Below, in pieces: positions 1,269 through 41,097 of a DNA stretch of 64,000 nt. Where the stretch lies: the IMG/VR virus record IMGVR_UViG_3300031248_000002; one strand, 5' to 3'. Each line of letters starts with the position of its first letter. The stretch's first letter is position 1. Made by a program: the position numbers and the translations under genes. The stretch comes from a virus. Below the pieces are notes generated by a model. The model did no database searches, was not told the DNA's origin, and worked only from the letters and a program-made list of their open reading frames with translations.

Positions 1269-1407
1269 CCTGTGCCCGCGCGTGTGCTGAAAGCGTTCCG
1301 ACCGCCGAATAAACGGAGACCTGATATGCCGAAGAAAAACGATCTTCCGCTGCATAGCGAAGGTTTGAACGAGGGTAAGAAAACCCCGGTGAAGAAGGAG
1401 AAGTAAC

Positions 1408-1584: not shown

Positions 1585-1645
1585 CGCTTTGCACACGTGA
1601 CATCCGGCCCATCGGATGCGCGATAATACTTGTAGGGAGATAAAC

Positions 1646-2083
1646 GTGAATAACTTGAAAAACAAACTGCTTTGTGGCTTTGCGTCCGCCGTGATCGCAT
1701 TGACGCTTTTTGCCTTTCCCGCATTGTCGGCGGTCGGCCCGATTACTCCGGAAGACGTAGAGTACTTGCTGACTAAGAATGCTAAGGTTCTGCCGGATCA
1801 GGATGCCGGGATTGTTGCGGAACTGGGCAAAGCGCTGGGTAAGTTCGAGACCTGGGGCGTTAACGTTGACAAGGTTAAGATTCCCGACTTTGAAATCGTG
1901 TTTGCGGTTACAAAGGCGAATTTCGCCGGTCCGGTTGGCGTCCACGCCCGCGTGTACCTTGTTGCGAAGCATAAGGGTACGGGGAATCTGCAAGCGTTCG
2001 ACGTGGAGTACATTCAGCGCTTCGGGACGTATTCTACAGCGGTGGATTTGATTAATTTAGCAAAGCCGAAAGCCTCGGAGTAA
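1646..2083 (+). CDS. secreted/exported protein (145 aa from GTG 1646)
   Basis: GGGAGA SD lies before GTG 1646. The N-terminus VNNLKNKLLCGFASAVIALTLFAFPALSAVGP looks like a signal peptide. The ORF-track version starts at 1616. Confidence 0.55.
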   Translation: MNNLKNKLLCGFASAVIALTLFAFPALSAVGPITPEDVEYLLTKNAKVLPDQDAGIVAELGKALGKFETWGVNVDKVKIPDFEIVFAVTKANFAGPVGVHARVYLVAKHKGTGNLQAFDVEYIQRFGTYSTAVDLINLAKPKASE

Positions 2084-2086
2084 CGT

Positions 2087-2413
2087 ATGCCCGAAGAGAA
2101 ATCGGCGTTAGATAAACTATACGATATCTTGTTCTTCAAAAAGACGAACAAGACATTGCAGGATTCGGGTGGCGGAGTTGATAAAGCCGCGCCGTCGTAT
2201 TCTGCGGAAGACTGGAAAGCCGCGAAGAAACGGACTGACGAGTACATGGCGGAAAAGAAACGAGCCGAGGACGCAAAGAAAGCCGCTGCGCCCGCTGTGC
2301 CGGTTGCTCCGCCGCGCGCTCCGGCTTCCGGGTTGCAGGAGTTATCGACGCCACGGCCCAAAAAGAAAGCGGTGACTATCGGCAGGATTGTGCAGCAGAA
2401 AGACGAAGATTAA
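2087..2413 (+). CDS. hypothetical Lys/Ala-rich protein (108 aa)
   Basis: ORF in the operon, starting 3 nt after the previous stop. Confidence 0.5.
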   Translation: MPEEKSALDKLYDILFFKKTNKTLQDSGGGVDKAAPSYSAEDWKAAKKRTDEYMAEKKRAEDAKKAAAPAVPVAPPRAPASGLQELSTPRPKKKAVTIGRIVQQKDED

Positions 2414-2425
2414 AAGCGGGTATAC

Positions 2426-3853: not shown

Positions 3854-3875
3854 TCTTAACGAAAGGAGCGGATAA

Positions 3876-6206
3876 GTGGCGTTCGTTACGCAACTCGATG
3901 CTCTAGAATTTACGTCTTTAGAGTTTCCGTACGACCGGATAACTAATGAGCTAGAAGATTCGCCGCCGCGTTTAGTAGCCGGGGAAAACGTGTACGTGAT
4001 GCTTGGCGGGAAATTGGCTAAGCGTCCGGGGACGTTGGAAATCGGCGATCTGAACGATACCGCTAACACGTCGCGGGTTGTACGAGTGTGGACAATCGAA
4101 ACGCTCGGTAACCCGCCGCATATTTTTCAGTTAGCGTCTGTGTACAACGCAGCGACGGCAAAATACCGAATGGAATGGATACAACTGGACGCCGCGTCGC
4201 CAGCCTGGACGTCGTTAGGGTCTTTGCGAGACATTGATGCCAGCGTATACCCGCATGAAGTCCGTATATCGCGCGGGTTAGCATATATCAAAGCGTTCCC
4301 GAATGCAGCGGGCGATAAATTAGGCAGTGTTGTGTTTGACGGCAGCACCGGGACACCGGTAGTCCGACCGTGGGGATTGTTACCGCCGACGGTCCCGGCT
4401 GCGGCGGTTGGTGCGATAACACGGTTATCGGCAGCGGTAGACGATGTCACTGGGACGTTGCCGGTTGTGTCTGACACCGGATTTCCGGCGGTCTCGTTTA
4501 TCGTTCAAGTTGAATTTGAGCAGATGTTGGTAACAGCCGGTCTGCCGGGGGTTTCGTGGACGGTGACTCGCGCGTATAACGGTACGACAGCGGCAGCGCA
4601 CGACAAAGACGTCCCGGTGTTCTGGCGTAACTGGTCGGCGTCCGATCACCAAGTAGACGTCGCGTTGTTCTGGCGGTATTCGTATTGCAAAAAGTCGGTC
4701 ACCGGGCAGTACTCGTCGCGCGCGCCGTTACAAACTAATCCGGACAAACTTCCGTCTCAAACCGGGCCGTTTTTCGATTTGATCCCGAAGTTCACGATAA
4801 CCGGGGACGCGGATACTACAAACGTTCCGTCTTTGGTCGTTATGCGCAGTGAAGACGGCGGCGGGGTGTTCTATGAACTTCGGACATACACAAACACCGG
4901 AGCCGGAGCGATTACGATAGAAGATAAATATTTGGAGTCCGGAACCGGAGGCGGGACGTTTAACGATCCGACTCCGGACGAAGCGTTGAACCGGGGGCTA
5001 CGGGCTCCAACTGAAACCGGGAACAACCCGCCGCCGACGGTTATCGCTCCGGAAGTAGTCGGGACGAACACGGTTCAACGCAGCACGCCGATTGCCGCGT
5101 ATTCAGGACGTTTGTGGTTCGCGATCGGTAACATCTTGTTTTTCTCCGGGCAGGAAGAGATTCTGCTTGGGATTCCAGAGGAAAGCTGGGATTATTCAGC
5201 AACCGGCCGGTTCTTTCGGTTCCCGACGCAGATAACGAATATCGAGGCGACTAATGACGCGCTGTACGTGTTCACGATTTCCGGTGCGACGTACCAAGTA
5301 ACCGGGACGAACCCGGCGACGTTTAACTACCGGCCGTTGTTTGATAACGTCGGCGCGCCGTACGGACAGCCCGCCGCAATTACGCGGTTCGGCAGCACGA
5401 TAGCAATGCTGACACACGATTTGCGCGTGGTGCTTATCGAGAACGATCAGTACGTGACGATCTCCGACCCGTTGTTCACCGATCTAGTCGATGCGGCGAA
5501 TGAAGGAAGCCGATTTGAAATCGCGTACTTCGGCGATCTCGAAAAAGAATGGCTGGTAGTCGCGGCGCATAACGACACAGACACAACGCTTAGTAAACAA
5601 TGGCTGTACGATATTAAGCTATCGGAGAAGAACAAACGGCACTTCTGGTCGCCGCCGTGGAAAATCCGTGCAACCGCGATGTTCTCGTACCGGATTACGG
5701 AAGGCTCGTCGCAACGACGGTTGTGTTTCTTTGTCTGGGACCCCGCTGCGGCTAAAGGCCGGTTAGTACGAATCGACCCGACCGGGCGGACCGGTTCTGA
5801 CTCGGACCCGGCGACCGGCGACGCAACCGGGTTCTTTGTGGACGCCCGGACGAATTTGTTCCGCGTCCCAGCCGGGAACCACGTGAACGAACTGCGCGTG
5901 CCGCCGACGGTCACCGTCGCGTACAACATTACTATGGACCGGATGCAGTTTACCGGCGTAGCTAATTTGCCGGATCGAGATCCGTTGGTTTATTATTACT
6001 GGGATGATTTCGGGAATGATCCGATACAGGTGAAACCCGCGGAAGATCCGGCTCGGCGCGTGAAGTCGGTTGGATACCGGACGCTAACCTACCCGATCTG
6101 GACCAGCGGACAACGTATATCGGTGCAGATTCGCAAACTCGCGAGTAAAGACCTGATGCAGATTTGCAATTTGGCGGTCACGTTCGCGCCGAACTCCGGG
6201 ACGTAA
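3876..6206 (+). CDS. large tail structural protein (776 aa; nozzle/tubular-B-like by size and position)
   Basis: GTG start after an AAAGGAG SD. The segment VTGTLPVVSDTGFPAVSFIVQVEFEQMLVTAG...VTRAYNGTTAAAHDKDVPV resembles the N-terminal domain of the tail fibre at 52067. The exact role is inferred only. Confidence 0.5.
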   Translation: MAFVTQLDALEFTSLEFPYDRITNELEDSPPRLVAGENVYVMLGGKLAKRPGTLEIGDLNDTANTSRVVRVWTIETLGNPPHIFQLASVYNAATAKYRMEWIQLDAASPAWTSLGSLRDIDASVYPHEVRISRGLAYIKAFPNAAGDKLGSVVFDGSTGTPVVRPWGLLPPTVPAAAVGAITRLSAAVDDVTGTLPVVSDTGFPAVSFIVQVEFEQMLVTAGLPGVSWTVTRAYNGTTAAAHDKDVPVFWRNWSASDHQVDVALFWRYSYCKKSVTGQYSSRAPLQTNPDKLPSQTGPFFDLIPKFTITGDADTTNVPSLVVMRSEDGGGVFYELRTYTNTGAGAITIEDKYLESGTGGGTFNDPTPDEALNRGLRAPTETGNNPPPTVIAPEVVGTNTVQRSTPIAAYSGRLWFAIGNILFFSGQEEILLGIPEESWDYSATGRFFRFPTQITNIEATNDALYVFTISGATYQVTGTNPATFNYRPLFDNVGAPYGQPAAITRFGSTIAMLTHDLRVVLIENDQYVTISDPLFTDLVDAANEGSRFEIAYFGDLEKEWLVVAAHNDTDTTLSKQWLYDIKLSEKNKRHFWSPPWKIRATAMFSYRITEGSSQRRLCFFVWDPAAAKGRLVRIDPTGRTGSDSDPATGDATGFFVDARTNLFRVPAGNHVNELRVPPTVTVAYNITMDRMQFTGVANLPDRDPLVYYYWDDFGNDPIQVKPAEDPARRVKSVGYRTLTYPIWTSGQRISVQIRKLASKDLMQICNLAVTFAPNSGT

Positions 6207-6208
6207 CC

Positions 6209-6484
6209 ATGCGGAAAATAATTCTACTTCTTGGGTTACTGATTCCGGCAGCCCCGCTGCGTGCTCCGGACGACGTGTTTACCAGTAAAGTCCTGCGTTT
6301 TGAGATAACCTGGGACAAATTTATACGACGGATGTTCGGGTGTCCGGAGGGTCGAGTGCTGACGGACCCGGCGTCCGAGTGTCATCCGGCGACCGGCCGA
6401 ATAGATTACAGCGTGTTCCGGCAAACATGTTTGCGCGCCGCCGATTTATATAACTTTCCTATGGACGTGTGCCGTGCAGAGTAG
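6209..6484 (+). CDS. small secreted Cys-containing protein (91 aa)
   Basis: ATG at 6209 follows the previous stop. MRKIILLLGLLIPAAPLRAP looks like a signal peptide. Confidence 0.5.
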   Translation: MRKIILLLGLLIPAAPLRAPDDVFTSKVLRFEITWDKFIRRMFGCPEGRVLTDPASECHPATGRIDYSVFRQTCLRAADLYNFPMDVCRAE

Positions 6485-7736
6485 TTACAAAGAGACCGCC
6501 GAGCAAAGAGCGCGGATAAGCCGTATCAATTCGGACAGCGTCTTTGTAACAGAAACTTCGGTCAATCAACTTGGTACGGCGGAAGGCGCGTTGCTGCCAC
6601 CGCCGCAGAAAGGCCAGTTCCGTGTTCCATTTGTGTACGGACTTCGCGTCGCGAAACGCCGGTCGTATCTTGGCGGCACTGAGTTCACGCTGACATGGTT
6701 GGAACCAGAAGGGTTAACTAACGTCTCGCATTATAACGTGTATGTAACCGGGCTACTGGATAACAACAAAACTCCGCAAGGTCCGAGCACGGTTCAGCGT
6801 TCCCCGGCTGTGATTCGATTAGTAAACGGCGACATATCGCGGATTTCGTTTATCGTCCAGACGCAGTTAAAAAACGGGATGGTTAGCGATTTGCTGGAAT
6901 CGCCAACGGTTTCTTCCGAGACCTTGGTGCAAGGATTTGTACCCAGTGATCTAAACGGCGTTGGCACGACAGGTCAATTGCTGACGTGGACCGGAGCCAC
7001 CGCGACACTAATCGGACCGGGCGCAACAAACGAAATTCTAACCGGTGACGGTGTCGCGATACCGGTGTTCCGCAGCCGCGCAACTTTGGATCTCGTGGAG
7101 GGCCGAAGCGCGCTGACAACCGCGAACCGCATTGTGCTTGTTGGATCAGCTGGGGTTGTTACTCAGTTAGGGAGTCTGGGAACAACGACGACGGTTCTGC
7201 ACGGGAACGCTGCCGGATCGCCGTCGTTCGGCGCGGTTTCGCTTACCACCGATATCACCGGGACGTTACCGATCGGGAACGGCGGGACGAATAAGACGTC
7301 ATGGACCGCCGGAAGCGTAGTATTCGCTGGGGCCGGAGGCACCGCTTTAGCAGAAGACAACGCGAATCTTTTCTATGATGATACAAATAACCGGTTGGGA
7401 GTCGCAACAACCGCCCCAAAATCCACCTTAGAAAGCGGCGGTACCTTCGGGCTCAAAGTCAAAAGCATTGTTGCTGGGGATTCTCCGTACACTGCCGCTG
7501 CCGAAACCGTTATCCTCGCAGACGCTACTGGCGGAAATATAATCGTTAATCTTCCAGTGTTAAGTGGAGTCTCCGGCCGAATTTATCACATAAAGAAAAC
7601 CGATTCGTCTGTGAACACAGTAACGTTAGATGGAGATAGTAGCGAGACTATTGATGGAGCTACGACTCAGATTTTAACCACTCAGTATCAAAGTCTCATG
7701 ATTTTCTCCGGACCGTCTGAATGGAGTATTTTGTAG
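6474..7736 (+). CDS. tail fibre protein (420 aa)
   Basis: It contains the motif TTVLHGNAAGSPSFGAVSLTTDITGTLPIGNGGT...LFYDDTNNRLGV, which I recognise as typical of phage tail-fibre repeats. The GTG start is uncertain. Confidence 0.6.
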   Translation: MQSSYKETAEQRARISRINSDSVFVTETSVNQLGTAEGALLPPPQKGQFRVPFVYGLRVAKRRSYLGGTEFTLTWLEPEGLTNVSHYNVYVTGLLDNNKTPQGPSTVQRSPAVIRLVNGDISRISFIVQTQLKNGMVSDLLESPTVSSETLVQGFVPSDLNGVGTTGQLLTWTGATATLIGPGATNEILTGDGVAIPVFRSRATLDLVEGRSALTTANRIVLVGSAGVVTQLGSLGTTTTVLHGNAAGSPSFGAVSLTTDITGTLPIGNGGTNKTSWTAGSVVFAGAGGTALAEDNANLFYDDTNNRLGVATTAPKSTLESGGTFGLKVKSIVAGDSPYTAAAETVILADATGGNIIVNLPVLSGVSGRIYHIKKTDSSVNTVTLDGDSSETIDGATTQILTTQYQSLMIFSGPSEWSIL

Positions 7737-8146
7737 TGAGTTATACCGACTTTACTAGAAGCTACGTACCGCAAGCGCTATCGACTTCGGTAGTATCGTT
7801 AACGGCTACTGGAATTACTAATATAGTAAATGAAACCGAAGCAGGTGTTTTAAATGAAATTGGGATCGCGATAAACACCGTTGTACTAGCGTCTGCTACA
7901 GCTAATCTGGAAATCCAGATAGACGGTGGGTCTACAATATCGTCTCCGATCTTTGCAGGAGCGGCTACGTTATCAGCGGCTTGGAAAGCGGTACCAGGTT
8001 CCGGTACATCCGCTGTTGGCGATTTCCGGGTTATATCCTTTCATGTTCCATATCTTACGTCCGTACGCGTCGGGATTAACGTAACCGGAGCAGCGGGAGT
8101 AACCGGGGAACTCCAAGTTACAGTTACCAGATCTAAACGGATTTGA
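7721..8146 (+). CDS. hypothetical protein downstream of tail fibre (141 aa)
   Basis: ORF overlapping the fibre stop. An alternative GTG at 7736 gives a TAGTG overlap. Confidence 0.5.
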   Translation: MEYFVVSYTDFTRSYVPQALSTSVVSLTATGITNIVNETEAGVLNEIGIAINTVVLASATANLEIQIDGGSTISSPIFAGAATLSAAWKAVPGSGTSAVGDFRVISFHVPYLTSVRVGINVTGAAGVTGELQVTVTRSKRI

Positions 8147-8210
8147 CAGGGTGCAAAGTATTTATTCTAAACCCGGCGCGATGCGGTAAAATAAAGAAGA
8201 AGAAGAGATT

Positions 8211-8564
8211 ATGACGATACGCCCCGCTACATCTGAAGACTACGAGAGAATCAGGGACCTTGGTGTGTTCCCATCCGGGATGTTTCCGGAAACCGGCTTA
8301 CCGGTTATCGCTGAGAACGATAACAAAGAGATCGTTGGTTTTCTATTTGGACAAGCTGTTGTACACACTGAACCCGTGTGGGTTCGAGAAGATACTCGTG
8401 GACAACGTGTACCTGAAAAGCTATTTGAGGTTCTTGCAAAGGAATTGAAGACGCTTGGAGCTAGAACTGTATACGCCTTTTCGTCTAGTGCGATCGTGGA
8501 TAAAATAGCGCGGAATTGTGGCTTCATAGAGAAACCCTGGAAGCTGTTTGAGAGGACGTTGTAA
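8211..8564 (+). CDS. GNAT-family N-acetyltransferase (117 aa)
   Basis: It has a GNAT motif-A-like segment, VREDTRGQRVPEKLFEVLAKELKTLG, and a typical small size. Confidence 0.6.
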   Translation: MTIRPATSEDYERIRDLGVFPSGMFPETGLPVIAENDNKEIVGFLFGQAVVHTEPVWVREDTRGQRVPEKLFEVLAKELKTLGARTVYAFSSSAIVDKIARNCGFIEKPWKLFERTL

Positions 8565-8565
8565 C

Positions 8566-10434
8566 ATGCCGTTTATCGTACCTTTACTTCCCGCTATCAT
8601 CGGTGCTGCCGGAGCTATCGGCGGAGGATTAGCGGCCCGACCATCTGGTAGCAGCGGATCGCAGCAACCGGGCGGATTGGCTGGCGCTGTGGGAGGCATT
8701 GACCAACAGAATCAGCAGCAATGGCAACAAGCAGCCGCGATAAATATGCTGAATTACGCGCGAGACTCCGGGCAAATCTCGCTCGACCGATACAATCAGC
8801 TTATTGGGCCGTTGATGGCCGGTTTGCAGCAGAACCAGGGAAGCGCTAATATATATCTGTGGGGCGGCGGTGACAACGGCGTTGGTCAAATCCCGCAGTT
8901 CGGCGGCGCGATGCAGGACTGGCAGGGCGGGATATTGGATCTGTTCCGGAATCTTGGCGAGTACACTACGCCGCAGATGCAGCAGGCGTACCAAGGGCTG
9001 TTCGGGTTGAACGAAGGTGCGGCGAATACTGGGAATCTTGCCGGACAGGTATTCGCGGGCGGCGGATGGTCCCCGTTCGGACAGCAAGTCCTGGACCGCG
9101 CGATGGAGATGGGGCAAGGGCAAGGGTGGCAGTTAGGCCAACTCGCGACGACCGGCGGTGAGTTACTCGGGCGGTACGGTGTGAACGGTATGACCGGTGG
9201 CGCGCAAGACGCAGCATTAGCTGCGTTAGCCGGACAAGGCCGGACGCCCGGTATAAACAATCTGTCGGCGGCGGGACAAAACGCGCTCGGCGGGTCGTTT
9301 GGTGTTGGCGGACTGACTCCGACCGGCGCAGTCGGTGAAGGCGTTGGGTTGCAGCAATTGCTGGAAGGCGGCCGGACGCCGCAGACTCAGGAACTAGCGA
9401 ACTTTGGGACGCAACAGGCGGCACAAGAACCGTTGCTGCCGATGGACGAAGCTCTGAACTTCGCGCGTCAGGAAGCAGCCCAGAATGTTGCCGGACAGCG
9501 CGAAGGCGCAATGCGACAGATTCTAGCGCGCGGGGGTGGTCCGGCCGCGTTGTCGCAAGGCGGGATGGGCGGGACACAAGCCCAAGGCGTCGCCGAGTTT
9601 GCCGACTATGCGTTGGAAGCCGAATCACAAGCGATCCGCGACGCGTTGATGAAACAGCAGGGTTTGCAGTTGCAGCGCCAAGAACAAGGCACCGGGATGG
9701 CGTTGAACGCGTTAGACCAAGAACGCGCGCGGCAGGCGGTATCCGCGTCGATGCTCGGGAATCTGGAGGACGTTGCGTCTCGCCGATTCCTGGCGGGCGG
9801 CGGGATGATGTCCGATGCCGAGAGGGTCGCTGCGCAACGCGAGTTAGGGCTAGGCGGTCTCGGGGTCAATGCGGGCGAACTTGAGAACCAACGGATGCAA
9901 ACCGGCGGGTCGCTGATGGATATTTACAACCGGTACCGATTAGGCGGTTTGTCGCTTGGTCAGCAAGGGCTGCAAGCGATGAACCAGTACGCGTTAGGCG
10001 CGGGCGGGTTACAGAACAGTATGATTGGGACGCAAGGCCAGAATTATAACAACATCTTGCAGAACATTTTGCAAGGCGGACAGCTTGGCGCGAATCGCGG
10101 CACGGCGATATCGAACGCGACGAATCAAGGATTCGGGAATCAGAATCAGTTTTACGGGAATCTGTTGCAAGCTCTGGCGGCGACGTACAACCCGCAAACG
10201 TCTATGGCTAATCAAGCTCTTAGCGTATTCGGTAATCTCGCGTCGTTCAATCCGTTTTCTCCGTACGGATCTGCACAAGCGGGGCAAGCGTCTCCGTGGG
10301 CGAGTATTCTTAGCGGCGTGGGACAGGTCGCGCAGGCCGGGGCTGCCGCAATAGGACATCCGAACATTTCGGGAATCCAAACTGGCCCGCCAGCTTACTT
10401 CCCATTCCCCGGCGGCGTTCCACCAATGTTATAA
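8566..10434 (+). CDS. Gly/Gln-rich internal virion (ejection/tape-measure-like) protein (622 aa)
   Basis: ATG is 1 nt after the GNAT stop. The N-terminus is hydrophobic (MPFIVPLLPAIIGAAGAIGGGLAA), and composition is repetitive and G/Q/A/L-rich. Confidence 0.55.
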   Translation: MPFIVPLLPAIIGAAGAIGGGLAARPSGSSGSQQPGGLAGAVGGIDQQNQQQWQQAAAINMLNYARDSGQISLDRYNQLIGPLMAGLQQNQGSANIYLWGGGDNGVGQIPQFGGAMQDWQGGILDLFRNLGEYTTPQMQQAYQGLFGLNEGAANTGNLAGQVFAGGGWSPFGQQVLDRAMEMGQGQGWQLGQLATTGGELLGRYGVNGMTGGAQDAALAALAGQGRTPGINNLSAAGQNALGGSFGVGGLTPTGAVGEGVGLQQLLEGGRTPQTQELANFGTQQAAQEPLLPMDEALNFARQEAAQNVAGQREGAMRQILARGGGPAALSQGGMGGTQAQGVAEFADYALEAESQAIRDALMKQQGLQLQRQEQGTGMALNALDQERARQAVSASMLGNLEDVASRRFLAGGGMMSDAERVAAQRELGLGGLGVNAGELENQRMQTGGSLMDIYNRYRLGGLSLGQQGLQAMNQYALGAGGLQNSMIGTQGQNYNNILQNILQGGQLGANRGTAISNATNQGFGNQNQFYGNLLQALAATYNPQTSMANQALSVFGNLASFNPFSPYGSAQAGQASPWASILSGVGQVAQAGAAAIGHPNISGIQTGPPAYFPFPGGVPPML

Positions 10435-21852: not shown

Positions 21853-22619
21853 CAGACGATCACCATTAAACCTTCCGGCTGGAAGTCTCGGCACTCGAAC
21901 TTCCCATCACCCGCCGGATACCCGCGTTGGTTTGTCACGACGCGCGTCCGACGGATCGTCTGGTCGTCGTTCTCATGGGTATGTCCGTAGATCCACAGAT
22001 CGGGTTGCCGTGTTTCTATTACCGGAACCATGTCTAATGAATTAAATGCAGGCTCCAACGGCCCGTTACGGTACTTGGTCTTCGAGTATCTAACCGGCGC
22101 GTGATGCGAGATAACTACGCGCGGTCCGGCTAACGGCTCGTCAAACCAGTCGTGAAGTCTCGCGACGAACTTTTCGTGTAACTCGACGCTTCGGTGTGGC
22201 GTGAACTTTGTTCCGTCCGCGTTCCGGATTAGCTGGAAATCGGACATCGCGTACTTTGCGTCGTGCATTGCGTTCCAGTCCGAATCTGCGAACCACGTCC
22301 ACATCGTACCGCCGAAGAAATTGACGCCGTCTAGACTAATTGGTTTATCCGACAATAACGAGACGTTCGGGCAGTTTACGTTTAGCCAAAAGGCAAAACT
22401 TGCCTCTGAGGTATCCATCGGCAATTTAGTGTAGTATTCGTGGTTACCCGCAACATACAACACAGGTTTAGCCCAGTCGTAAAGGAAACGGCGAAGCGGC
22501 GAGAAATTCACGAATGAAATTATATCTCCAGCTAACACTAATACATCCGCATCTGCGTCAGCCGGTAGCGTCCAGTCGCCGAATTCCAAATGCAGGTCGC
22601 TGTAGATAAGCAGCTTCAT
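21852..22619 (-). CDS. calcineurin-like metallophosphoesterase (255 aa)
   Basis: Motifs seen are YSDLHLEF, AGDI, GNHEYY, SHHAP and YGHTHE. Confidence 0.8.
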   Translation of the reverse strand: MKLLIYSDLHLEFGDWTLPADADADVLVLAGDIISFVNFSPLRRFLYDWAKPVLYVAGNHEYYTKLPMDTSEASFAFWLNVNCPNVSLLSDKPISLDGVNFFGGTMWTWFADSDWNAMHDAKYAMSDFQLIRNADGTKFTPHRSVELHEKFVARLHDWFDEPLAGPRVVISHHAPVRYSKTKYRNGPLEPAFNSLDMVPVIETRQPDLWIYGHTHENDDQTIRRTRVVTNQRGYPAGDGKFECRDFQPEGLMVIV

Positions 22620-24355
22620 TAGAACAAGTCTCCCGGCAAAATTAACGTCGGCTTCTTCGACTTCTTACGCCGCCACGACGTGGCGGTAACGGGCCGAAAC
22701 GCGCGGGTGACACTCGACGTGTCCAGCAACTTCCGTTCCGTCCGCAACGAGGCTTTGAAATAATGCCCGCGCCAGTAGCTTACGCCCCCAGTACCTTCGA
22801 TAGCAGGTAAAACCAACGCGGCCGCTTTATCGCCGCACAGAACACAAACGCGGTAACCTTGTTCCATAAACCGCGCGGCTTTCTCAAAGTCGCGGCGGAC
22901 AAGGAAGAAATAGGCGTTTTCGCGAAGAACCGCAGCCGGGTGTAGCGTAATGACGAAGAGATTCGGGTCCCAGTCGGCGATTCCGGATGCGGCAAGGTTA
23001 CCTCTGGAGTCCCCGTGGTACCAGTCGTACTGACGACAAATCTGTTCGGCTTTCTTCCGGGTCTGGCCGTCCGGATACTCGTTAGCTTCGCCGCGACAGT
23101 TATGGTTGACCAAACCTTGCGCCACATAACTTTCATCTTCTTCTACAGACAATGAATAAATACCCCGGTTCCACTTTTGCTCCGCAATTTCGACTACCTC
23201 CGATTCCATAAACAAGTACTCATGTTCATCGTTATCCAACAACGACAGGATCGAATCGGGTGCAGTACATGGAACGTGTATAACAGAGTACCCGGCTTCA
23301 GCAGCCAGTTTTCTTTTTAAGCTGTTTCTTTCGGTAACACGGGCTTGATTATTATTTGTTCCCGGACCATCAATCTCGATCAGAACATTGCCTACCTTGA
23401 AATCAAAGTTGAACGGACCTAAAGAAAACTGTGATACCGGATCACGTCCCGCAGCTAATAAAACAGCATGAACTTCCGGCTCCCCCAATCCGATCCAAGG
23501 AAAATCTCCTACTCCTAGCAACTCACGTGTCTTAGCCGTTGCAAGACGGCTTTTAGCGTGCGCTTCTGCACTTAGGTTTTGAAGATTGTGTTTACCTTCT
23601 CTAATCAAATCGCGAGTAGCTGCATTCGCAGCTTTTGTTATTAGGTACGGATCTCTTGTTCCATTCCGGTAATTTTCCTTTAGCTTTCTAGAGATGGCTT
23701 CGGAATCATAGGGAGCAAATTTGCCTTGACACTCACGTGAACAAAACGCGAGAGTATGAAACTGATTTTTGTGCCCTCTATTAAAGACCTTTCCACAGCC
23801 CAAACAACGCTCGGCCACAACTGTTATTGTGTCTCCGGCTCTTAAGTCCGAGGCTCGTTTCCAACCAACGGCTGTCATGAACAAGTGATCTAGACTAACT
23901 GTATAATGTGACTTATGCCCTCTGGAGTCCACTCGGACTATTTTTATCACCGAAGACTCTGAAGCTATTCTAACCTTGTTTAGAACGGACCTGAATCTTC
24001 CAAGGTGAGTCAGAACTAAATCCCCCGGCTGTACTCGGAGCATTTGTCGATATCCAGTTGATGTCAATACTTCCGTCTTTGAGGAAGCAAAGCAACGCAA
24101 TGTATTCGCGATTATGACGTCCGCACGTTCTAAACCTAACGGACGCAGAAACGCATGGAACGTAATGTCACCGGAAGCGCCGACTAGCGGGGTACGTTTC
24201 AGGGCTTCGTTTTCGCCGGGGCCTTCCAGCAAAAGAGCAAACTTCGGAGACGCCGGAACCCAGTCCGGAACGAACGAATGGGAATCGGCGGACCATGGGC
24301 ATAACGCGCATAACGAGGGTTTGCTACGAACGCCGAGGATCGGAAAAGTAGACAT
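22619..24355 (-). CDS. family-4 uracil-DNA glycosylase-like protein (phage polymerase-associated type) interrupted by an intein
   Basis: The exteins carry CALCPW, LEGPGENEA, PLVGASG, ANTLR|C|RGE (matching the UDG4 N.vKCRP motif) and HPAAVLR. ATG at 24355 was chosen because the ORF-track TTG at 24370 overlaps the tRNA. The spliced product is about 246 aa. Confidence 0.8.
   Translation of the reverse strand: MSTFPILGVRSKPSLCALCPWSADSHSFVPDWVPASPKFALLLEGPGENEALKRTPLVGASGDITFHAFLRPLGLERADVIIANTLRCFASSKTEVLTSTGYRQMLRVQPGDLVLTHLGRFRSVLNKVRIASESSVIKIVRVDSRGHKSHYTVSLDHLFMTAVGWKRASDLRAGDTITVVAERCLGCGKVFNRGHKNQFHTLAFCSRECQGKFAPYDSEAISRKLKENYRNGTRDPYLITKAANAATRDLIREGKHNLQNLSAEAHAKSRLATAKTRELLGVGDFPWIGLGEPEVHAVLLAAGRDPVSQFSLGPFNFDFKVGNVLIEIDGPGTNNNQARVTERNSLKRKLAAEAGYSVIHVPCTAPDSILSLLDNDEHEYLFMESEVVEIAEQKWNRGIYSLSVEEDESYVAQGLVNHNCRGEANEYPDGQTRKKAEQICRQYDWYHGDSRGNLAASGIADWDPNLFVITLHPAAVLRENAYFFLVRRDFEKAARFMEQGYRVCVLCGDKAAALVLPAIEGTGGVSYWRGHYFKASLRTERKLLDTSSVTRAFRPVTATSWRRKKSKKPTLILPGDLF
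23099..24094 (-). mobile_element. intein (332 aa) with Zn-ribbon and Vsr/DUF559-like endonuclease insert
   Basis: It starts CFASSKTEVL (Cys1), has block B SLDH and block F IYSLSVEEDESYVA, and ends LVNHN followed by +1 Cys. The insert contains CLGCG...CSREC and FDFKVGNVLIEIDG....R..LAAEAGYSVIHV. Confidence 0.8.
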
Positions 24356-24360
24356 CAATT

Positions 24361-24450
24361 TGGTGGGCAAGGAAGGAGTCGAACCTTCAATCCCCTAAGG
24401 GGAGCCGGGGTTACAGCCCGGTGCGGTTCGCCAGTCTCCGCAGCTTGCCC
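24361..24450 (-). tRNA. tRNA-Tyr (GTA), long variable arm, CCA encoded
   Basis: Hand-folded. Acceptor GGGCAAG/CTTGCCC, D stem GCGG/CCGC, anticodon stem CCGGG/CCCGG with loop CTGTAAC, a variable arm with CCCC/GGGG, and T arm GAAGG-TTCGACT-CCTTC. Confidence 0.9.
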
Positions 24451-24635: not shown

Positions 24636-24711
24636 TGGTGGACCCCGCTGGATTCAAACCAGCAACCTGTCCGGTGCAAGCGGACTGCTCTGTCAATTGA
24701 GCTAGGAGCCC
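24636..24711 (-). tRNA. tRNA-Ala (TGC), CCA encoded
   Basis: Hand-folded cloverleaf with anticodon loop CTTGCAC, the G3:U70 alanine identity pair, and T arm GCTGG-TTTGAAT-CCAGC. Confidence 0.93.
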
Positions 24712-37193: not shown

Positions 37194-38426
37194 TCAGTTA
37201 ACAATCAACTTCGGAACTTTCTGCTTCTGCTCACATGCCGAGGAGCAGAAAACGTCTTCTGCGCAAGACTCGTCTGCCGCGATCCAATGCGTCCAGCGTA
37301 ACGAACACTCCGGACATTCGTGTTCACAGCGTTTCATGCTGCCGCCGTTACAATACTCCGGTGTCAGACATTTCGAGCAAAGATCGCGATTCGCCAGCGG
37401 AAAAATACACGATTTGTTATCCACACTCTGCAAATGCGACCAGCGAACTCCACACGGACAAGTGTGGTGACATATCACGCCGTCTTGATCGGGCCAATCT
37501 TCGTCCACAATCTGCGCAGTCGGGTCAGTCCCGACGACGGCGGATTTCTTTTTCATCCCGGTCTGAAAACAAACCACGCAAAGATCGCGGTCTTCTTTGG
37601 CAAACGAACACTCCGCCGCGTTCTGCGCTATATCGTGCGACCAGTTTTCGCCGCACGGACAAACGTGCGCGCATACACGGGTTCCCCCCGTGCTCGTCCC
37701 GGTAGACGGGTTCCATGTTTGTGCGCGGACTTTGCTAAAACATTTCGTGCACAGATCGCGGTCTTTTTCCGGGAACTCGCACGCCGTGGCTGTCGCGTTT
37801 ATCGAATGCTTCCAGGCCGTCTGGCATTGCGGACAAACATGATCGCAATCTTTTCTAGCCCAGCCAGCGGTGGACGCAACTACCGCGTATTTCTCCGGCA
37901 GATCCCTGCCAAGGATTTCGTAAATCGCTTTCCGCTGCGCCAATGATTCTACCGCGTTATCGCAATACCGTTCGCGTATCGCCGCTATCGGGTCGTCGAT
38001 CTCCGGTTCCAGAAACGCAATTAACGACGCCAGCATAGTCCCGGTGCGGCCGTGACCGCCGGTGCAGAAAAACAAAACCCGTTTCCCAGTTTTAACCACG
38101 TCTGCGAAGTATTCGACCAGCACGCGCCACATTTCCGCTTTCGGCGCGTTGTAGTCTTGCATCTCGCAGTCGATTATCGTCAACGGCTGAAGATAGCTGC
38201 CTCCAGGAAGATTACCGTTCAGCGTCACCACCCAGTCGATCTCGCTCAGGTTCTCTTTGGTTATCGCGTATTCGCTTCCGGCCCAAACCGTATACTCGCC
38301 GATTTTTACGGGCGTCGCAGCATGACGGCATTTTCCACCTTGGATTACAGTCACGGCGGTTTTATCGACGTCAGCGTTCGCGTTACCGCCGAATACGAAA
38401 CTGCCGAGATGTCGGTCTTGTCCCAT
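37194..38426 (-). CDS. Cys-based (PTP/dual-specificity-type) phosphatase fused to four Zn-ribbon repeats (410 aa)
   Basis: The signature FFCTGGHGRTG (CX5R(S/T); Cys codon 38064-38066) lies about 30 aa after MQDYNAP, which is general-acid-like. ATG at 38426 follows a GAGGAG SD. Confidence 0.7.
   Translation of the reverse strand: MGQDRHLGSFVFGGNANADVDKTAVTVIQGGKCRHAATPVKIGEYTVWAGSEYAITKENLSEIDWVVTLNGNLPGGSYLQPLTIIDCEMQDYNAPKAEMWRVLVEYFADVVKTGKRVLFFCTGGHGRTGTMLASLIAFLEPEIDDPIAAIRERYCDNAVESLAQRKAIYEILGRDLPEKYAVVASTAGWARKDCDHVCPQCQTAWKHSINATATACEFPEKDRDLCTKCFSKVRAQTWNPSTGTSTGGTRVCAHVCPCGENWSHDIAQNAAECSFAKEDRDLCVVCFQTGMKKKSAVVGTDPTAQIVDEDWPDQDGVICHHTCPCGVRWSHLQSVDNKSCIFPLANRDLCSKCLTPEYCNGGSMKRCEHECPECSLRWTHWIAADESCAEDVFCSSACEQKQKVPKLIVN
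37236..37847 (-). repeat. four tandem ~35-aa Cys/His modules (C.H.CP.C..W.H......C.F....RDLC..C)
   Basis: The modules are CDHVCPQCQTAWKH..CEFPEKDRDLCTKC, CAHVCPCGENWSH..CSFAKEDRDLCVVC, CHHTCPCGVRWSH..CIFPLANRDLCSKC and CEHECPECSLRWTH..C...FCSSAC. Confidence 0.75.
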
Positions 38427-38454
38427 GTTTGTCTCCTCGTTTCCAGCGAACCAG

Positions 38455-40824
38455 CTAAGCACGCTCTGGCGAATGTTGCGGTGCTGGCGAATCTTGCGGT
38501 GTTTCCGCGATTTTTTCATCTGTCGCCTCCGACGCCGACGACTCCTCGTTTACCGGGATCGTCGTTGGATAACTGGAAAAACTATACGTTTCGTCTACAC
38601 AGTTTCCGGACCCCGCGCCGTTATTTGTTTCGGCGGGTTCGGGGACACTATCGTCGTCTTCGACGTCTTCAAGAATCTGCGGCGGAGCCTCTTCCGGCGG
38701 CTGTTCTTCATCGTCTTCTACCGGGTCGTCCACGACTAGCTTAAGCTCCGATGCGGGAAACCCGGCCCGCAACTTTTCTCGGTTAGAATTTCTGAACGCG
38801 GCGTTTATGAAAGGCCAGTACGCTTGTACCGGTTTGTTAGCTTGGTGACGACCTAACGCATCTGGATCTGACCAGATCGGACAAAACGCTTCGTTAACCA
38901 ACTGGACGATACGAAGCGGATCGGCGATAAAAGTTAACCCACACGATTGTTTCAAATCCAGTAACGCCATTAACCCTTCGTCACCTCTGCTCAAACCAAT
39001 CGTAAGATTCGTCAGCTTGTTGAAAACCAAACAAGAGTTGTGCTTCAGATTGAAAACACCGTCCAGGAACAACGCATCCGATAACCGCCCGGTCATCCAG
39101 CGCAGCAAATGCGTCGCGATAACCGCCCACTTTTTTCCGCCGTACGACCCGTACCAGCTCATTTTGGTAAAGTACCCGATGGATAACGAAACCACATGGC
39201 ATTTCTTCTCCGGCGGAAGCTCCGGAAGAAAACTTGAAATAAACTTATCGCGAGCTTTAATGCCGAAACCTGCGACTATCTGCGGAGAGATTTTCTTCAT
39301 CGCAGAGGTTAATTTCCAATACGCGTCTCCATCCGCGCGAGTACGCACATGCCGTAGTTCTGCTACGACGCAAAGATACAAATACCCCGCGATCACTTCT
39401 GCGTACTCTCGGACCCGGCCTTTGTCTCCGTTCTCCCAGGAACGGTAAAAGTCGATCATTAACGGCGCTATGGAGACGAAGCTGGACACGAATCGTTCTG
39501 TGTTCGGGTTGTTAATTCGTCTCGGCGGTTTCGGCTTTTCCTCGACGACTAACGCGGGTACGAAGTCCGGCGGAACACGATATACCGCGCCAGACGAACC
39601 GTTGACTAACAGCTTTTCGCCGCTTTTTGTCGCTTTGTATATCGTTGCAGAAACGATTTCGGGTAACAAAAACGCGGGTTTTCCAAGTTCCCGCGCTATA
39701 ATCGCTGCATGACAAGTGGCCGATCCGTTCCGGACAAATATCGCGGCTGCTTTTTGCATCCGAGTATACTCGGACGGCGAGAAGTTCGTTAAGTAGAAAA
39801 ACGTCTCGCTGTCGATAACCGCCGTACTCGACGCGCCTATCGGCATCAAATCTGCGAGTTTTTCGGCGCCATCTGGAATCGCTGTGTCCGACTCCGGAAT
39901 CTTAGAGAACTTCAAAGCGCGGTGCTGCAAGAACCAAAATTTCAAACCGCCCGGTTCATCCGGAGCGTTTTCTGCGCACCATTCTACGTCGCTAGGCCCT
40001 AGATTCTGATGAATCTTTATTAACGCTTTGAACAACGTCGCGAAACGCGGGTCAGACAAAGAAATCTCTACACCTTTTTTCTCGCCGCCTACCAGCGCCG
40101 TCCCTAAGCCTTCGACGGCTTCCACAATCGGGAAGAACGACGTTCCGTGCGTATGATTCGGGTCAGAAGTAAACGCGACTCCAGAATACACAATATTCTT
40201 GGGCACGACTTGTATCACTACGGCCGTGCCGGTATCGGCAATTCCGTTTGCCTCTCGGTACGCCACTGCTTCCGGCGCATTCCACGATTCGTAAACTTCC
40301 AGCGCCGCCGCTATTATCCTGTCAGGTCCGCGAACGGGGATTTTCGTTTTCAGCATTCCGGGCATAGAAGTCGGCGCGCCGGAACGCACAGATACCACAC
40401 GACGATGCAAAATTGGCGCGCTAGGGGAGACACAAATTCTAACTGGCGGAACCGCGACCGGAAGCACCGCGTATTCTGGGACTGAAAGATCGCAAGTATG
40501 GGAAAGACGATACAATCCGGCTGCTTTGCCGCCGATTCGGTCGGCGTTTAAATACTGCTCGACAAACGAAACTTCAGTAACGCCATTCGGCGACGGAGTT
40601 TTTTCTACGGGCGCTTCGTCTTTGTTTTCTGCGCCGGCAACATCCGCAAACACGTTTGTTGACCAGATCAGGTAACAATCGTACAATGTGTGTGCGTGAT
40701 GAGGCCCGGAGTGTCCCGCTTCATTCGTGCAGTAGTATCTAAACTCATTCTCGACCACATTACATTGCCCCGGTGCGCCGGGGTCTTGTGCGGTTTTGAG
40801 AAAATCCCAGATTTTGCACTTCAT
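38455..40824 (-). CDS. PEP-synthase/PPDK-like His-swivel phosphotransferase (dikinase-like) with unrecognised C-terminal domain (789 aa)
   Basis: PPDK_N/ATP-grasp-like features are GGKAAGLYRL, VSVRSGAPTSMPGM and AVVIQVV...GVAFTSDP. The PEP-utiliser mobile domain is NGSATCHAAIIARELGKPAF (His codon 39709-39711). The last ~330 aa match nothing I recognise. ATG at 40824 was chosen. Confidence 0.7.
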   Translation of the reverse strand: MKCKIWDFLKTAQDPGAPGQCNVVENEFRYYCTNEAGHSGPHHAHTLYDCYLIWSTNVFADVAGAENKDEAPVEKTPSPNGVTEVSFVEQYLNADRIGGKAAGLYRLSHTCDLSVPEYAVLPVAVPPVRICVSPSAPILHRRVVSVRSGAPTSMPGMLKTKIPVRGPDRIIAAALEVYESWNAPEAVAYREANGIADTGTAVVIQVVPKNIVYSGVAFTSDPNHTHGTSFFPIVEAVEGLGTALVGGEKKGVEISLSDPRFATLFKALIKIHQNLGPSDVEWCAENAPDEPGGLKFWFLQHRALKFSKIPESDTAIPDGAEKLADLMPIGASSTAVIDSETFFYLTNFSPSEYTRMQKAAAIFVRNGSATCHAAIIARELGKPAFLLPEIVSATIYKATKSGEKLLVNGSSGAVYRVPPDFVPALVVEEKPKPPRRINNPNTERFVSSFVSIAPLMIDFYRSWENGDKGRVREYAEVIAGYLYLCVVAELRHVRTRADGDAYWKLTSAMKKISPQIVAGFGIKARDKFISSFLPELPPEKKCHVVSLSIGYFTKMSWYGSYGGKKWAVIATHLLRWMTGRLSDALFLDGVFNLKHNSCLVFNKLTNLTIGLSRGDEGLMALLDLKQSCGLTFIADPLRIVQLVNEAFCPIWSDPDALGRHQANKPVQAYWPFINAAFRNSNREKLRAGFPASELKLVVDDPVEDDEEQPPEEAPPQILEDVEDDDSVPEPAETNNGAGSGNCVDETYSFSSYPTTIPVNEESSASEATDEKIAETPQDSPAPQHSPERA

Positions 40825-41097
40825 GCAGTTTCTCCCGGTGTCCTTTCTTCTATTTCGTTGTGGAAAACCACAACGGGATAGAGCAAATGACAACAACTGC
40901 GATTAGTATTACTAAAATACACAACAATTCAGCAGCCCTTTCGGGTAAGTCGCGTGGCGCGCGATAAGAAGTTAAACGCCCGGCAGAAGTCGCTTGCCCG
41001 TTAACATCGGGACTAAACGCTTCTGCCGGGGCAGGTTGGCCGGTATGTCCGGCAGCAAAAGTTTCGGTGAACGGTAGCGAAAAGATCCACGGCGGAT

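Follow-up and report, generated by a model that had tools for sequence, protein, structure and literature searches.

The analysed stretch of phage DNA (IMG/VR record IMGVR_UViG_3300031248_000002, 64,000 nucleotides, referred to here as the window) carries on its minus strand a gene for a family-4 UDG-like precursor that is interrupted by an intein (Table 1). The minus-strand ORF 22619..24370 was the sole long ORF in the ORF listing at this locus, and its listed TTG start overlaps tRNA-Tyr (24361..24450). Since, in addition, the homolog on a related phage contig (L001) starts at a Met equivalent to the ATG at 24355, translation almost certainly begins at this ATG. Database protein P0001 is identical to the 578-aa product. 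A total of 9 contigs encode this protein, and the two listed locations come from two different samples, so that an assembly artefact or chimera was ruled out.

The N-extein aligns to residues 14-100 of the Thermotoga maritima UDG4 TM0511, including EGPGEEE and N..KCRPP, and the C-extein is colinear without gaps with the intein-less homolog in L001 (2633..3373). The N-terminal half of the spliced extein matched TM0511 (1L9G/1VK2) with E=5e-8 and the TIGR00758 and NF040953 models with E-values of about 1e-11 to 1e-12, with scores under the curated cutoffs (43.7 against 125 for TIGR00758 and 47 against 250 for NF040953; 22.7 against 24.3 for Pfam UDG). The UDG4 motifs present are E-G-P-G-E-N-E, L-H-P-A-A-V-L-R, the C-x2-C pair, the +1 Cys and the Cys of E-Q-I-C, and the C-terminal half of the protein is divergent from the UDG4 models. 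We therefore describe the host protein as UDG4-like, with a putative glycosylase activity.

Table 1. Features of the interrupted UDG-like gene in the window; a slash marks a splice junction
Feature	Position	Strand	Details
Host gene, family-4 UDG-like precursor	22619..24355	minus	578 aa; ATG at 24355, stop 22619-22621
N-extein	24095..24355	minus	87 aa; C-x2-C, EGPGENE motif, ends ...IIANTLR
C-extein	22622..23098	minus	159 aa; +1 Cys (23096-23098) of C-R-G-E-A-N-E-Y-P; HPAAVLR motif
Spliced junction of host gene			...AATACATTGCGT/TGTCGCGGCGAA...
Intein, class 1	23099..24094	minus	332 aa, CFASSK...GLVNHN; Cys1 ... His-Asn, then +1 Cys
N-terminal splicing (HINT) half	23813..24094	minus	intein aa 1-94; Cys1 24092-24094; block B S67-L-D-H70 23885-23896
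Four-cysteine zinc finger	23720..23812	minus	intein aa 95-125; C97-x2-C100 ... F-C118-S-x2-C122; FCS/MYM/YacG-like
Helical region	23495..23719	minus	intein aa 126-200; conserved Y142-x2-G145-x-R147-D ... ITKAAN
Nuclease core	23219..23494	minus	intein aa 201-292; Vsr/DUF559/EDxHD-type PD-(D/E)XK fold
Conserved residues of nuclease core	D231 23402-23404; E240 23375-23377; D242 23369-23371	minus	E205, Q222, D231, E240, D242, K260
C-terminal splicing part	23099..23218	minus	intein aa 293-332; block F IYSLSVEEDESYVA; block G GLVNHN; His-Asn 23099-23104

An intein at a conserved UDG4 cysteine

All of the splicing blocks named in the original prediction (Cys1, SLDH, block F, the terminal His-Asn and the +1 Cys) were present, and the 332-aa insert mapped exactly to the boundaries proposed for it. 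The insert scored above the curated cutoffs of Pfam Intein_splicing (37.0 bits against 35.8, E=3.7e-9) and of TIGR01443 intein_Cterm (19.1 against 15.6, spanning aa 312-332), and phmmer aligned residues 1-332 to homologous inteins with E-values down to 2e-86. Block F is EEDESYVA, the C-terminal end reads ...VEEDESYVAQGLVNHN/C, and H331-N332 is followed by the +1 Cys in ANTLR/C/RGE. In an alignment of 32 inteins (A1) the invariant residues were C1, F2, T11, G14, G24, L28, R33 and H70 in the N-terminal half and D320, S322, G327, H331 and N332 in the C-terminal part; at position 67 of block B the window intein has Ser where at least 90% of the homologs have Thr. These results confirm by sequence that the insert is a class-1 intein with every class-1 splicing element, and splicing is predicted. 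An intein-like or Hint domain of another kind was rejected on the basis of the His-Asn plus +1 Cys and of the colinear intein-less homolog.

The A1 profile matched the gp41-1 intein (6RIZ) with E=1.1e-9. The AF2 model of the intein had a pLDDT of 85.7 overall and above 90 over the splicing halves, and its top Foldseek matches were inteins, namely gp41-1 (6QAZ), DnaB and RecA (probability 1.0), so that a HINT fold is confidently predicted for the insert.

The intein is followed immediately by the conserved Cys of the 'KCRPP' motif of UDG4, a site that aligns to N-V-V-K-C-R-P-P of TM0511. This agrees with the placement first proposed, before the Cys of 'N.vKCRP', and the identical 'N..x/C-R-P-P' site is occupied in 24 UDG or UDG-PolA hosts. 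We take the Cys at the insertion point to be a 4Fe-4S ligand in UDG4 structures.

Zinc finger and nuclease core of the central region

The central 200 residues of the intein consist of a four-Cys zinc finger, a helical region and a nuclease core of predicted alpha-beta-beta-beta-alpha-beta topology, which was folded with high confidence by AF2. Both segments on which the original assignment of this domain was based, CLGCG...CSREC and FNFDFKVGNVLIEIDG...AGYSVIHV, are found in the intein. The expected zinc ribbon corresponds to the four-Cys finger, whose cysteines are all invariant (4/4) in the 32 inteins; profile matches to FCS/MYM fingers and YacG were weak (E 0.06-0.8), and one member of the intein family matched Pfam YacG with E=9.5e-4. 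In the helical region AF2 placed helices at 131-144, 149-165 and 176-193, with low confidence over 186-197, and this region is presumed to act as a DNA-binding tether. No LAGLIDADG or HNH family was matched by the intein in Pfam and NCBIfam scans, as had been anticipated. PHROG matches to HNH endonucleases were weak (best E=0.0025) and lay mostly over the zinc finger (aa 90-126), and an HNH endonuclease was accordingly rejected.

The suggestion that the domain resembles Vsr/DUF559 nucleases was upheld by family and clade profiles and by structure comparison. The query alone gave no significant match to nuclease families in Pfam (RAP, E=0.04; MTES_1575, PF18741, E=0.22 and 12 bits against a curated threshold of 38.2; DUF559, PF04480, not reported), and the central 201 aa alone matched nothing significantly in Pfam, PHROGs or NCBIfam. 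A phmmer search of the PDB sequences returned nothing but a designed repeat protein (E=0.34), and a word-indexed search with the central domain found no homolog. On the other hand, the A1 family profile matched the structure of I-Bth0305I (3R3P) with E=1.4e-12, followed by 3HRL (3.5e-5) and PvuRts1I (0.02). Profiles restricted to the UDG clade and to its near subclade matched 3R3P with E=1.1e-8 and 1.8e-6, respectively (E-values for a search space of PDB size, with an 83-aa fragment as target), and a profile of the MuF clade only matched the window ORF at 6.4e-17. Profiles made without the clade of the window intein and profiles made solely from it yield one and the same Vsr-like link.

Searches with other members of the family gave the same picture. 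Single members matched MTES_1575 in 19 of 32 cases, DUF559 in 14 of 32 (E at most 0.01) and Vsr in 4 of 32. One UDG-clade member (P0039) reached 30.9 bits on DUF559 against a cutoff of 20.6, and a MuF-clade intein matched I-Bth0305I directly in tblastn (E=3e-6). Little was gained from a word-indexed search with alignment A3, among whose listed matches were six DUF559 proteins. In Foldseek, the PDB entry that best matched the model, inteins aside, was again 3R3P (probability 1.0, TM 0.61-0.66, E only about 3e-3), followed by RAP-domain-like mitoribosomal proteins, TnsA and 3HRL. In BFVD the matches were phage proteins named 'very-short-patch-repair endonuclease', DUF559 or 'homing endonuclease', aligned over at least 200 columns. 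Sequence profiles and the predicted structure thus support the view that the central domain is a nuclease of the Vsr/DUF559 type, with a restriction-endonuclease fold, placed after a zinc finger.

The EDxHD/Vsr-like family is typified by the intron-encoded I-Bth0305I (PMC3239194), and the His and Asp of its motif are described as catalytic in I-Bth0305I and Vsr (PMC3239194, PMC2677866). Of this motif the window intein retains E240 and D242 but has Asn in place of both the His (Asn247) and the last Asp (Asn257). His was absent from position 247 in 24/24 UDG-clade inteins and position 257 was variable in this clade, whereas all four motif residues were found in 8/8 MuF-clade sequences. The nearest free-standing relative (P0040) keeps E-x-D-G-x2-T-H...R-R-D, which confines the loss to the intein clade. 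The window copy thus counts as a derived relative rather than a typical EDxHD member, and the term endonuclease denotes fold and ancestry for a clade that lacks the His and, in the window copy, the last Asp as well. Vsr proper has an F-W-H motif for DNA intercalation and general-base function and an intradomain zinc site (PMC2677866). The segment of the window intein aligned to it, D-G-P-G-T-N-N, contains neither the aromatic pair nor the His, and the zinc finger is a separate N-terminal module; by sequence, the intein is related to Vsr proper by fold only.

Other parts of the core are well conserved. E205, D231, F232 and E240 occur in 24/24 UDG-clade sequences, and conservation of the core in the near subclade equals or exceeds that of the splicing halves (identity 0.46-0.48 against 0.37-0.42). 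Because Asp231, Glu240, Asp/Glu242 and Lys/Arg260 are kept in the UDG clade, nuclease activity of the window intein is plausible but unproven. If this clade, which lacks the general-base His, is still catalytically active, it must rely on a metal-activated water or on some other residue; one candidate is His273, conserved in half of the UDG clade.

Distribution, composition and an intein-less allele

The intein family comprised 35 clusters among 1.84 billion representatives and occupies two sites in phages, one in UDG or UDG-PolA genes and the other in MuF genes. Inteins of the UDG clade were found in stand-alone UDGs, in UDG-PolA fusions and on diverse contigs. The cassette of zinc finger, helices and nuclease also exists in an apparently free-standing protein (P0045) and, in Pseudomonas phage MR14, as a nested out-of-frame ORF within a helicase intein (L003 1705..2430). 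A blastn search of GenBank phages with the host gene gave no match, a tblastn search of phages with the intein matched the N-terminal splicing region of other inteins and nothing further, and an intein scan of IMG/VR revealed no close relative.

No 996-bp stretch of the window has a lower GC content than the intein (0.446, against 0.564 for the exteins), whose GC3 is 0.389 against 0.628 for flanks and exteins. A UDG-clade member in another phage (P0002) showed the same contrast (intein GC3 0.314 against 0.513). The intein-less homolog in L001 encodes 246 aa, shares 82% amino acid identity with the exteins and is uninterrupted at ...R/CRGE.... Presence and absence are reciprocal in these two phages, as the PolA of L001 carries an intein at a place where the PolA of the window has none. 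These sequence features suggest recent mobility of the intein. The IMG/VR scan yielded no closer intein-plus/intein-minus pair and, since the L001 allele is only 73% identical in DNA, gain or loss long ago, instead of ongoing homing, could explain the presence/absence pattern. A MAFFT alignment of the DNA at both junctions was uninformative, and a codon-level comparison was used in its place; identity to L001 drops to 0.58-0.64 around the junction, a dip that was rejected as a sign of a co-conversion tract because it is not interpretable at 73% overall identity.

A proposed homing intein and its relatives

The reading that we consider probable is that the locus holds a mobile class-1 intein in a phage UDG-like gene of replication/repair, with a homing module of the EDxHD/Vsr-like branch of PD-(D/E)XK nucleases fused in frame. 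Once the precursor has been translated, the intein would remove itself in three steps (N-S acyl shift at Cys1, transesterification to the +1 Cys, cyclisation of Asn332) and leave a restored UDG-like protein. Either the excised intein or the precursor would next recognise, by its zinc finger and helices, intein-less alleles in co-infecting relatives. Cleavage would rely on a metal site made up of Asp231, Glu240 and Asp242, with help from Lys260, and recombinational repair would place a copy of the intein in the broken allele. Most probably the cassette was a free-standing homing-endonuclease gene when it invaded a mini-intein, and its fusion in frame came afterwards.

Alternatively, the intein may be real and its nuclease dead, the element persisting vertically and the domain being kept for folding or splicing of the intein or for residual DNA binding. 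The catalytic residues of the family are taken to include (PMC3239194, PMC2677866) the His that every UDG-clade sequence lacks at position 247 and the residue at position 257, which varies in the clade and is Asn in the window; their retention in P0040 sets the intein clade apart, and the closest pair of occupied and empty alleles is the distant one described above. We nevertheless regard a dead nuclease as rather unlikely, as the core is conserved at least as well as the splicing halves in the near subclade, and D231, E240, D/E242 and K/R260 are kept, and indels are almost absent, in clusters that share a mere 30-45% identity. A homing-endonuclease domain in decay normally contracts until little more than a mini-intein is left. 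Long residence is also argued against by the strong GC3 deficit in two phage backgrounds, and purely vertical descent by the spread of the clade over stand-alone UDGs, UDG-PolA fusions and diverse contigs.

A domesticated intein, in which the zinc-finger and nuclease-fold module senses DNA or redox/metal state and makes maturation of the UDG-like protein conditional, for example by Zn- or Fe-S-gated splicing, appears very improbable. Homologous inteins occupy an unrelated MuF head-morphogenesis host with an intact EDxHD motif, as expected of a mobile element, the window intein stands out in composition from the genome that carries it, and the intein-less allele exists in a related phage contig; these facts weigh more with us than the insertion at a presumed 4Fe-4S ligand, the invariant four-Cys finger and the conservation of the domain despite loss of the canonical catalytic His. 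Hardly credible at all is a spurious similarity to Vsr/DUF559, with an unrelated zinc-finger/helical insert or coding on another frame or strand. Although single-sequence searches were non-significant and antisense and out-of-frame endonucleases occur in related inteins, no alternative-frame ORF of at least 60 aa exists within the insert, which led us to reject an arrangement like that of actinophage or MR14 inteins. Independent profiles tie the region to 3R3P and to EDxHD-bearing inteins (1e-6 to 1e-17), and the in-frame region folds confidently, with 3R3P as top non-intein match, so that this explanation is effectively refuted already by profile and structure evidence.

Intein mobility is ascribed to the invasion of already existing splicing domains by homing-endonuclease genes, and direct intermediates of such composites are scarce. 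If the in-frame homing module is accepted, the family of the window intein represents the end state of in-frame fusion for a nuclease family other than LAGLIDADG/HNH, whose earlier states are observable: apparently free-standing, between split halves, antisense and nested out of frame. With this series of states, phylogenies and experiments can put the 'splicing first, endonuclease later' model to the test. More tentatively, the UDG-site clade could be a third in-frame class of intein homing endonuclease beside LAGLIDADG and HNH, born from a free-standing EDxHD/Vsr-like gene that was nested in a mini-intein and then brought into frame, and still an active site-specific DNase without the His, its active site rebuilt as a more canonical PD-(D/E)XK site of an acidic triad plus Lys. 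If so, the free-standing, split-locus, antisense, out-of-frame and in-frame forms would make up a complete testable series. The UDG clade is in any case a natural active-site variant without the presumed general-base His and bears on catalysis by the Vsr-like fold. Compact new site-specific nucleases are possible tools, as are splicing tools, given a splicing domain close to the gp41-1 intein. For annotation, phage genes of this kind are now labelled merely 'intein' or 'very-short-patch-repair endonuclease'.

The combination had been suggested to be possibly rare or new. The nuclease class is already known, also together with inteins: Vsr-like homing-endonuclease genes stand free between split-intein halves (PMC2677866), and actinophage inteins contain Vsr-like endonucleases as antisense ORFs (bioRxiv 10.1101/2025.01.02.630785). 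The latter work names LAGLIDADG and HNH alone as in-frame types, and no published in-frame Vsr-like intein endonuclease was found in open-access papers, an absence that is no proof. What appears to be unreported is the in-frame fusion of a Vsr-like nuclease into one contiguous intein polypeptide.

I-Bth0305I, from the recA group I intron of Bacillus phage 0305phi8-36, has the same fold as aa 201-292 and is their best profile and structure match. It is likewise phage-borne, with replication/repair genes as targets, and tethers an N-terminal DNA-binding region to a C-terminal catalytic domain. It differs in being a free-standing intron-encoded polypeptide and not an in-frame fusion within an intein, in having NUMOD-like N-terminal motifs (PMC3239194) in place of the four-Cys FCS/YacG-like finger and helices, and in possessing the EDxHD His and last Asp. 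The 'fractured genes' with split inteins (Dassa et al. 2009, PMC2677866), which include gp41-1, the intein that the present splicing domain resembles most, also bring this nuclease family and inteins together in phage DNA-metabolism genes, but with a separate endonuclease gene and trans-splicing, whereas one contiguous ORF and predicted cis-splicing are found here. In the actinobacteriophage and MR14 cases a contiguous intein is paired with the same nuclease family, and the MR14 ORF even shares the whole cassette with the window intein; there, however, translation of the other strand or of a different frame yields the nuclease as a product of its own, and the part of the intein that lies in frame is unstructured filler.

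Canonical LAGLIDADG/HNH inteins such as PI-SceI and the TerL intein of the window (54597..55376) share with the UDG intein the HINT scaffold, an in-frame endonuclease inserted at the equivalent point of the topology and, presumably, the life cycle of a homing element, but their nucleases are unrelated in fold and ancestry. A further close system is that of the metagenomic inteins in MuF (SPP1 gp7-like) head-morphogenesis proteins (P0004-P0011), which are homologous over the whole length (E 1e-16 to 1e-37), in frame and equipped with the four-Cys finger. They differ from the window intein in host gene and site (H-P-N/C-R-C) and in their full E-x-D-G-x-Y-W-H...D-x2-R motif, are recognised directly by Pfam DUF559, MTES_1575 and Vsr, and in several cases carry an extra helical insertion.

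Intein and host gene

The ORF call placed the whole insert, CFASSK...GLVNHN, inside one ORF, and its ends were mapped exactly. The TTG start listed for this ORF overlaps the tRNA-Tyr gene; the ATG at 24355, which corresponds to the Met at which the closest homolog begins, yields a 578-aa precursor identical to database protein P0001. The identical protein occurs on 9 contigs, and the two locations shown are from two different samples, indicating that the insert is not an assembly artefact. The UDG-like gene is immediately preceded by two tRNA genes, and the matching place in the related IMG/VR phage contig L001 is occupied by an HNH-endonuclease-like ORF instead.

The original prediction of an intein with canonical splicing blocks was borne out. 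The insert passed the curated cutoffs of Pfam Intein_splicing (37.0 bits against 35.8) and of the NCBIfam model TIGR01443 (19.1 bits against 15.6), and its class-1 elements are complete: Cys1, block B (S-L-D-H), block F (...VEEDESYVA) and a terminal His-Asn followed by the +1 Cys. When 32 homologous inteins were aligned, residues C1, H70, D320, H331 and N332 never varied. AlphaFold2, run on this alignment, gave a model with a mean pLDDT of 85.7, exceeding 90 across both splicing halves, and the predicted fold matched inteins best among PDB entries (gp41-1, DnaB and RecA first).

The spliced extein (246 aa) aligned to the family-4 UDG of Thermotoga maritima (1L9G/1VK2, E=5e-8) across the motifs C-x2-C, E-G-P-G-E-x-E and N-x2-K-C-R-P-P. 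This alignment confirmed the expected position of the intein, immediately before the Cys of the last motif, between ...IIANTLR and CRGEANEYP...; this Cys is presumably one of the four 4Fe-4S ligands. Since the host protein scored below the curated UDG-model thresholds and its C-terminal half is divergent, it is called only UDG-like (UDG4-like). Its gene sits in the replication module of the window, a tailed-phage genome that also encodes a terminase, a portal protein and a family-A DNA polymerase. On the contig of the homolog P0002 the gene is likewise near PolA, and in many relatives the UDG-like domain is fused to an exonuclease-PolA protein. Many proteins that host this intein (metagenomic P0023-P0028, P0035 and P0039) are single polypeptides of 1200-1600 aa in which a UDG-like domain is joined to a 3'-5' exonuclease and a family-A DNA polymerase, with the intein always within the UDG domain.

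The window also carries a second, conventional intein of ~260 aa in its 864-aa large terminase subunit, with junctions T-T-Y-H-Y|C-L-T-G-E-N-R...Y-C-S-K-N|S-D-L-Y, an LAGLIDADG_3 match at aa 365-419 and a GC content of 0.474 against 0.531 in the exteins.

Coordinates of features in the window and in related phage sequences
Sequence	Feature	Position	Strand
Window	UDG-like host ORF	22619..24370	minus
Window	Intein insert, 332 aa	23099..24094	minus
Window	tRNA-Tyr	24361..24450	minus
Window	tRNA-Ala	24636..24711	minus
Window	PolA, 695 aa	18908..20995	minus
Window	Large terminase subunit	53853..56447	plus
Window	Terminase intein	about 54597..55376	
Window	DSP-PTPase-like phosphatase-domain protein	37194..38519	minus
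Window	813-aa protein	38455..40896	minus
Window	Low-GC stretch	7400..8600	
L001	HNH-endonuclease-like ORF	2064..2480	
L001	PolA	3542..6547	
Barsten (L002)	MuF 'head morphogenesis' gene	1119..4238	
Barsten (L002)	LAGLIDADG ORF	2112..2732	minus
MR14 (L003)	gp44, 'putative helicase'	1212..3785	
MR14 (L003)	Nested 241-aa ORF	1705..2430	

Family assignment of the central domain

Searched alone, the central 201 aa gave no significant Pfam match (the best, RAP at E=0.04 followed by MTES_1575 at E=0.22, are restriction-endonuclease-fold families), no PDB match by sequence search and nothing in a word-indexed protein search. Searches with the whole precursor recovered two UDG homologs whose intein occupies the same site (P0002 and P0003, 41-42% identical) and eight phage MuF (SPP1 gp7) head-morphogenesis proteins with a homologous intein (P0004-P0011). 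The in-frame central domain of the MuF-protein inteins has precomputed Pfam matches to DUF559, MTES_1575 and Vsr and the motif F-x-D-F ... I-E-V-D-G-x-Y-W-H ... D-x2-R ... G-W-x-V-L-R-F. An exhaustive HMMER pass over 1.84 billion representative proteins matched the central domain to only 35 clusters, about 30 of them intein-embedded and five apparently free-standing.

A profile of the 32 inteins matched 3R3P, the catalytic domain of I-Bth0305I and prototype of the EDxHD/Vsr-like homing endonucleases, at E=1.4e-12, followed by the DUF559 protein 3HRL (E=3.5e-5) and PvuRts1I (4OQ2/4OKY, E about 0.02). A profile restricted to the 24 central domains from the UDG site reached the 3R3P fragment at 1.1e-8, one of the 13 nearest relatives reached it at 1.8e-6, and a MuF-clade-only profile matched the window ORF at 6.4e-17; the nuclease link does not depend on mixing the clades. 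Searched singly, 19 of the 32 members matched MTES_1575, 14 DUF559 and 4 Vsr. The in-frame region was confidently predicted to form helices followed by an alpha-beta-beta-beta-alpha-beta arrangement, for which Foldseek ranked 3R3P first among non-intein PDB entries (probability 1.0, TM 0.61-0.66), ahead of RAP-like mitoribosomal proteins, TnsA and 3HRL. Among predicted viral structures the model best matched phage proteins named 'very-short-patch-repair endonuclease', 'DUF559 domain-containing' or 'homing endonuclease', in alignments of more than 200 columns that take in the whole cassette beyond the nuclease core.

Upstream of the nuclease, a four-Cys finger (C97-x2-C100 ... F-C118-S-x2-C122), invariant in 32/32 inteins, weakly resembles FCS/MYM/YacG fingers. 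The helical region that follows, with conserved Y-x2-G-x-R-D ... I-T-K-x-A-N, is presumably a DNA-binding tether. The predicted pairing of a Zn-ribbon with a Vsr/DUF559-like nuclease is supported.

Active site of the UDG-site clade

The E-D-x-H-D set is intact in all eight MuF-clade inteins. Among the UDG-site inteins, E205, D231, F232 and E240 occur in 24/24 sequences, Q222 in 23 and Asp or Glu at position 242 in 22, and position 260 is a conserved Lys/Arg (alignment inspected by eye). Position 247, that of the family His, is never His in the 24 sequences and position 257, that of the last Asp, is variable; the window copy has Asn at both. The closest free-standing relative, P0040, kept His and Asp, indicating that their loss is specific to the UDG-site intein clade.

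The domain is not decaying: among the near-subclade inteins conservation peaks in the nuclease core (identity 0.46-0.48, against 0.37-0.38 in the N-terminal and 0.42-0.48 in the C-terminal splicing half), and the alignment has few indels. A candidate substitute base lies at position 273, which is His in 12/24 UDG-clade sequences and Arg in the MuF clade. An active nuclease with a remodelled site thus appears moderately, and only moderately, likelier than a dead domain. The comparisons support the reading of the window element as an in-frame EDxHD/Vsr-like endonuclease, with a His-less active site, in a contiguous intein.

Apparent mobility, relatives and provisional novelty

No other 996-bp segment of the window has a GC content as low as that of the intein (GC 0.446 against 0.564 in the exteins; GC3 0.389 against 0.628), which is compositionally foreign; the P0002 intein shows the same contrast (GC3 0.314 against 0.513). 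L001 (64.6 kb) carries an uninterrupted 246-aa UDG-like allele (82% protein and 73% DNA identity), and its PolA has an insert of ~300 aa at K-I-T-S-H-G|...|S-N-Y-G-M-G (C-V-A-A-G-H-E-V-L-T...V-M-V-S-G-N|S) that looks like an intein, at a site uninterrupted in the window PolA. Such reciprocal presence and absence is consistent with a turnover of inteins in this group of phages; window and L001 have diverged too far for recent homing to be proved, and an IMG/VR scan with the intein found no closer intein-plus/intein-minus pair.

Vsr-like homing endonucleases were defined as genes that stand alone, located between the halves of split inteins and inside group I introns (Dassa et al. 2009, PMC2677866), and the EDxHD family was named with the characterisation of I-Bth0305I (Taylor et al. 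2011, PMC3239194). A 2025 preprint described antisense Vsr-like ORFs within contiguous actinophage inteins and named two types, LAGLIDADG and HNH, for in-frame endonucleases (10.1101/2025.01.02.630785). In contrast to both arrangements, the nuclease of the window is in-frame in a contiguous intein. In the open-access literature we found no description of an in-frame Vsr-like endonuclease or of a comparable UDG intein. The suggested novelty of the combination therefore holds provisionally for the in-frame fusion, whereas the nuclease itself belongs to a known homing-endonuclease family, with its catalytic motif incomplete in the UDG-site clade. Public databases already contain some members, under automatic labels such as 'very-short-patch-repair endonuclease'. 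We consider the finding of moderate relevance, for specialists in inteins and homing endonucleases.

The relatives show how the composite may have arisen. P0045 (232 aa) has the finger, helices and nuclease of the window intein in what looks like a free-standing gene. The helicase gp44 of Pseudomonas phage MR14 (MT104474.1) contains an unannotated intein (Q-D-E|C-F-P...V-V-H-N|C-H-H) whose in-frame middle is low-complexity filler; nested in it, on the same strand and out of frame, is an ORF encoding a zinc finger and a DUF559/EDxHD-like nuclease (V-A-I-E-A-D-G-A-S-H...D-R-K-K-D...G-W-T-V-L-R-F; 1.5e-11 with the MuF-clade profile). This nested arrangement is a likely intermediate on the way to the in-frame fusion. 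The MuF gene of Gordonia phage Barsten (NC_055856.1) has an intein at the site used in P0004-P0011 (H-x3-N|C-R-C) with an antisense LAGLIDADG ORF, so a single intein site hosts more than one kind of endonuclease. Combined with the split-locus and antisense cases in the literature, these relatives form a progression that runs from a free-standing gene to a nuclease fused in frame.

Besides the UDG-site intein, a single stretch of the window (7400..8600) drops below a GC of 0.47 over 996 bp; it may be another foreign insert. The phosphatase-domain protein and the 813-aa protein, which has PPDK_N and PEP-utilising mobile domains, are unusual phage cargo.
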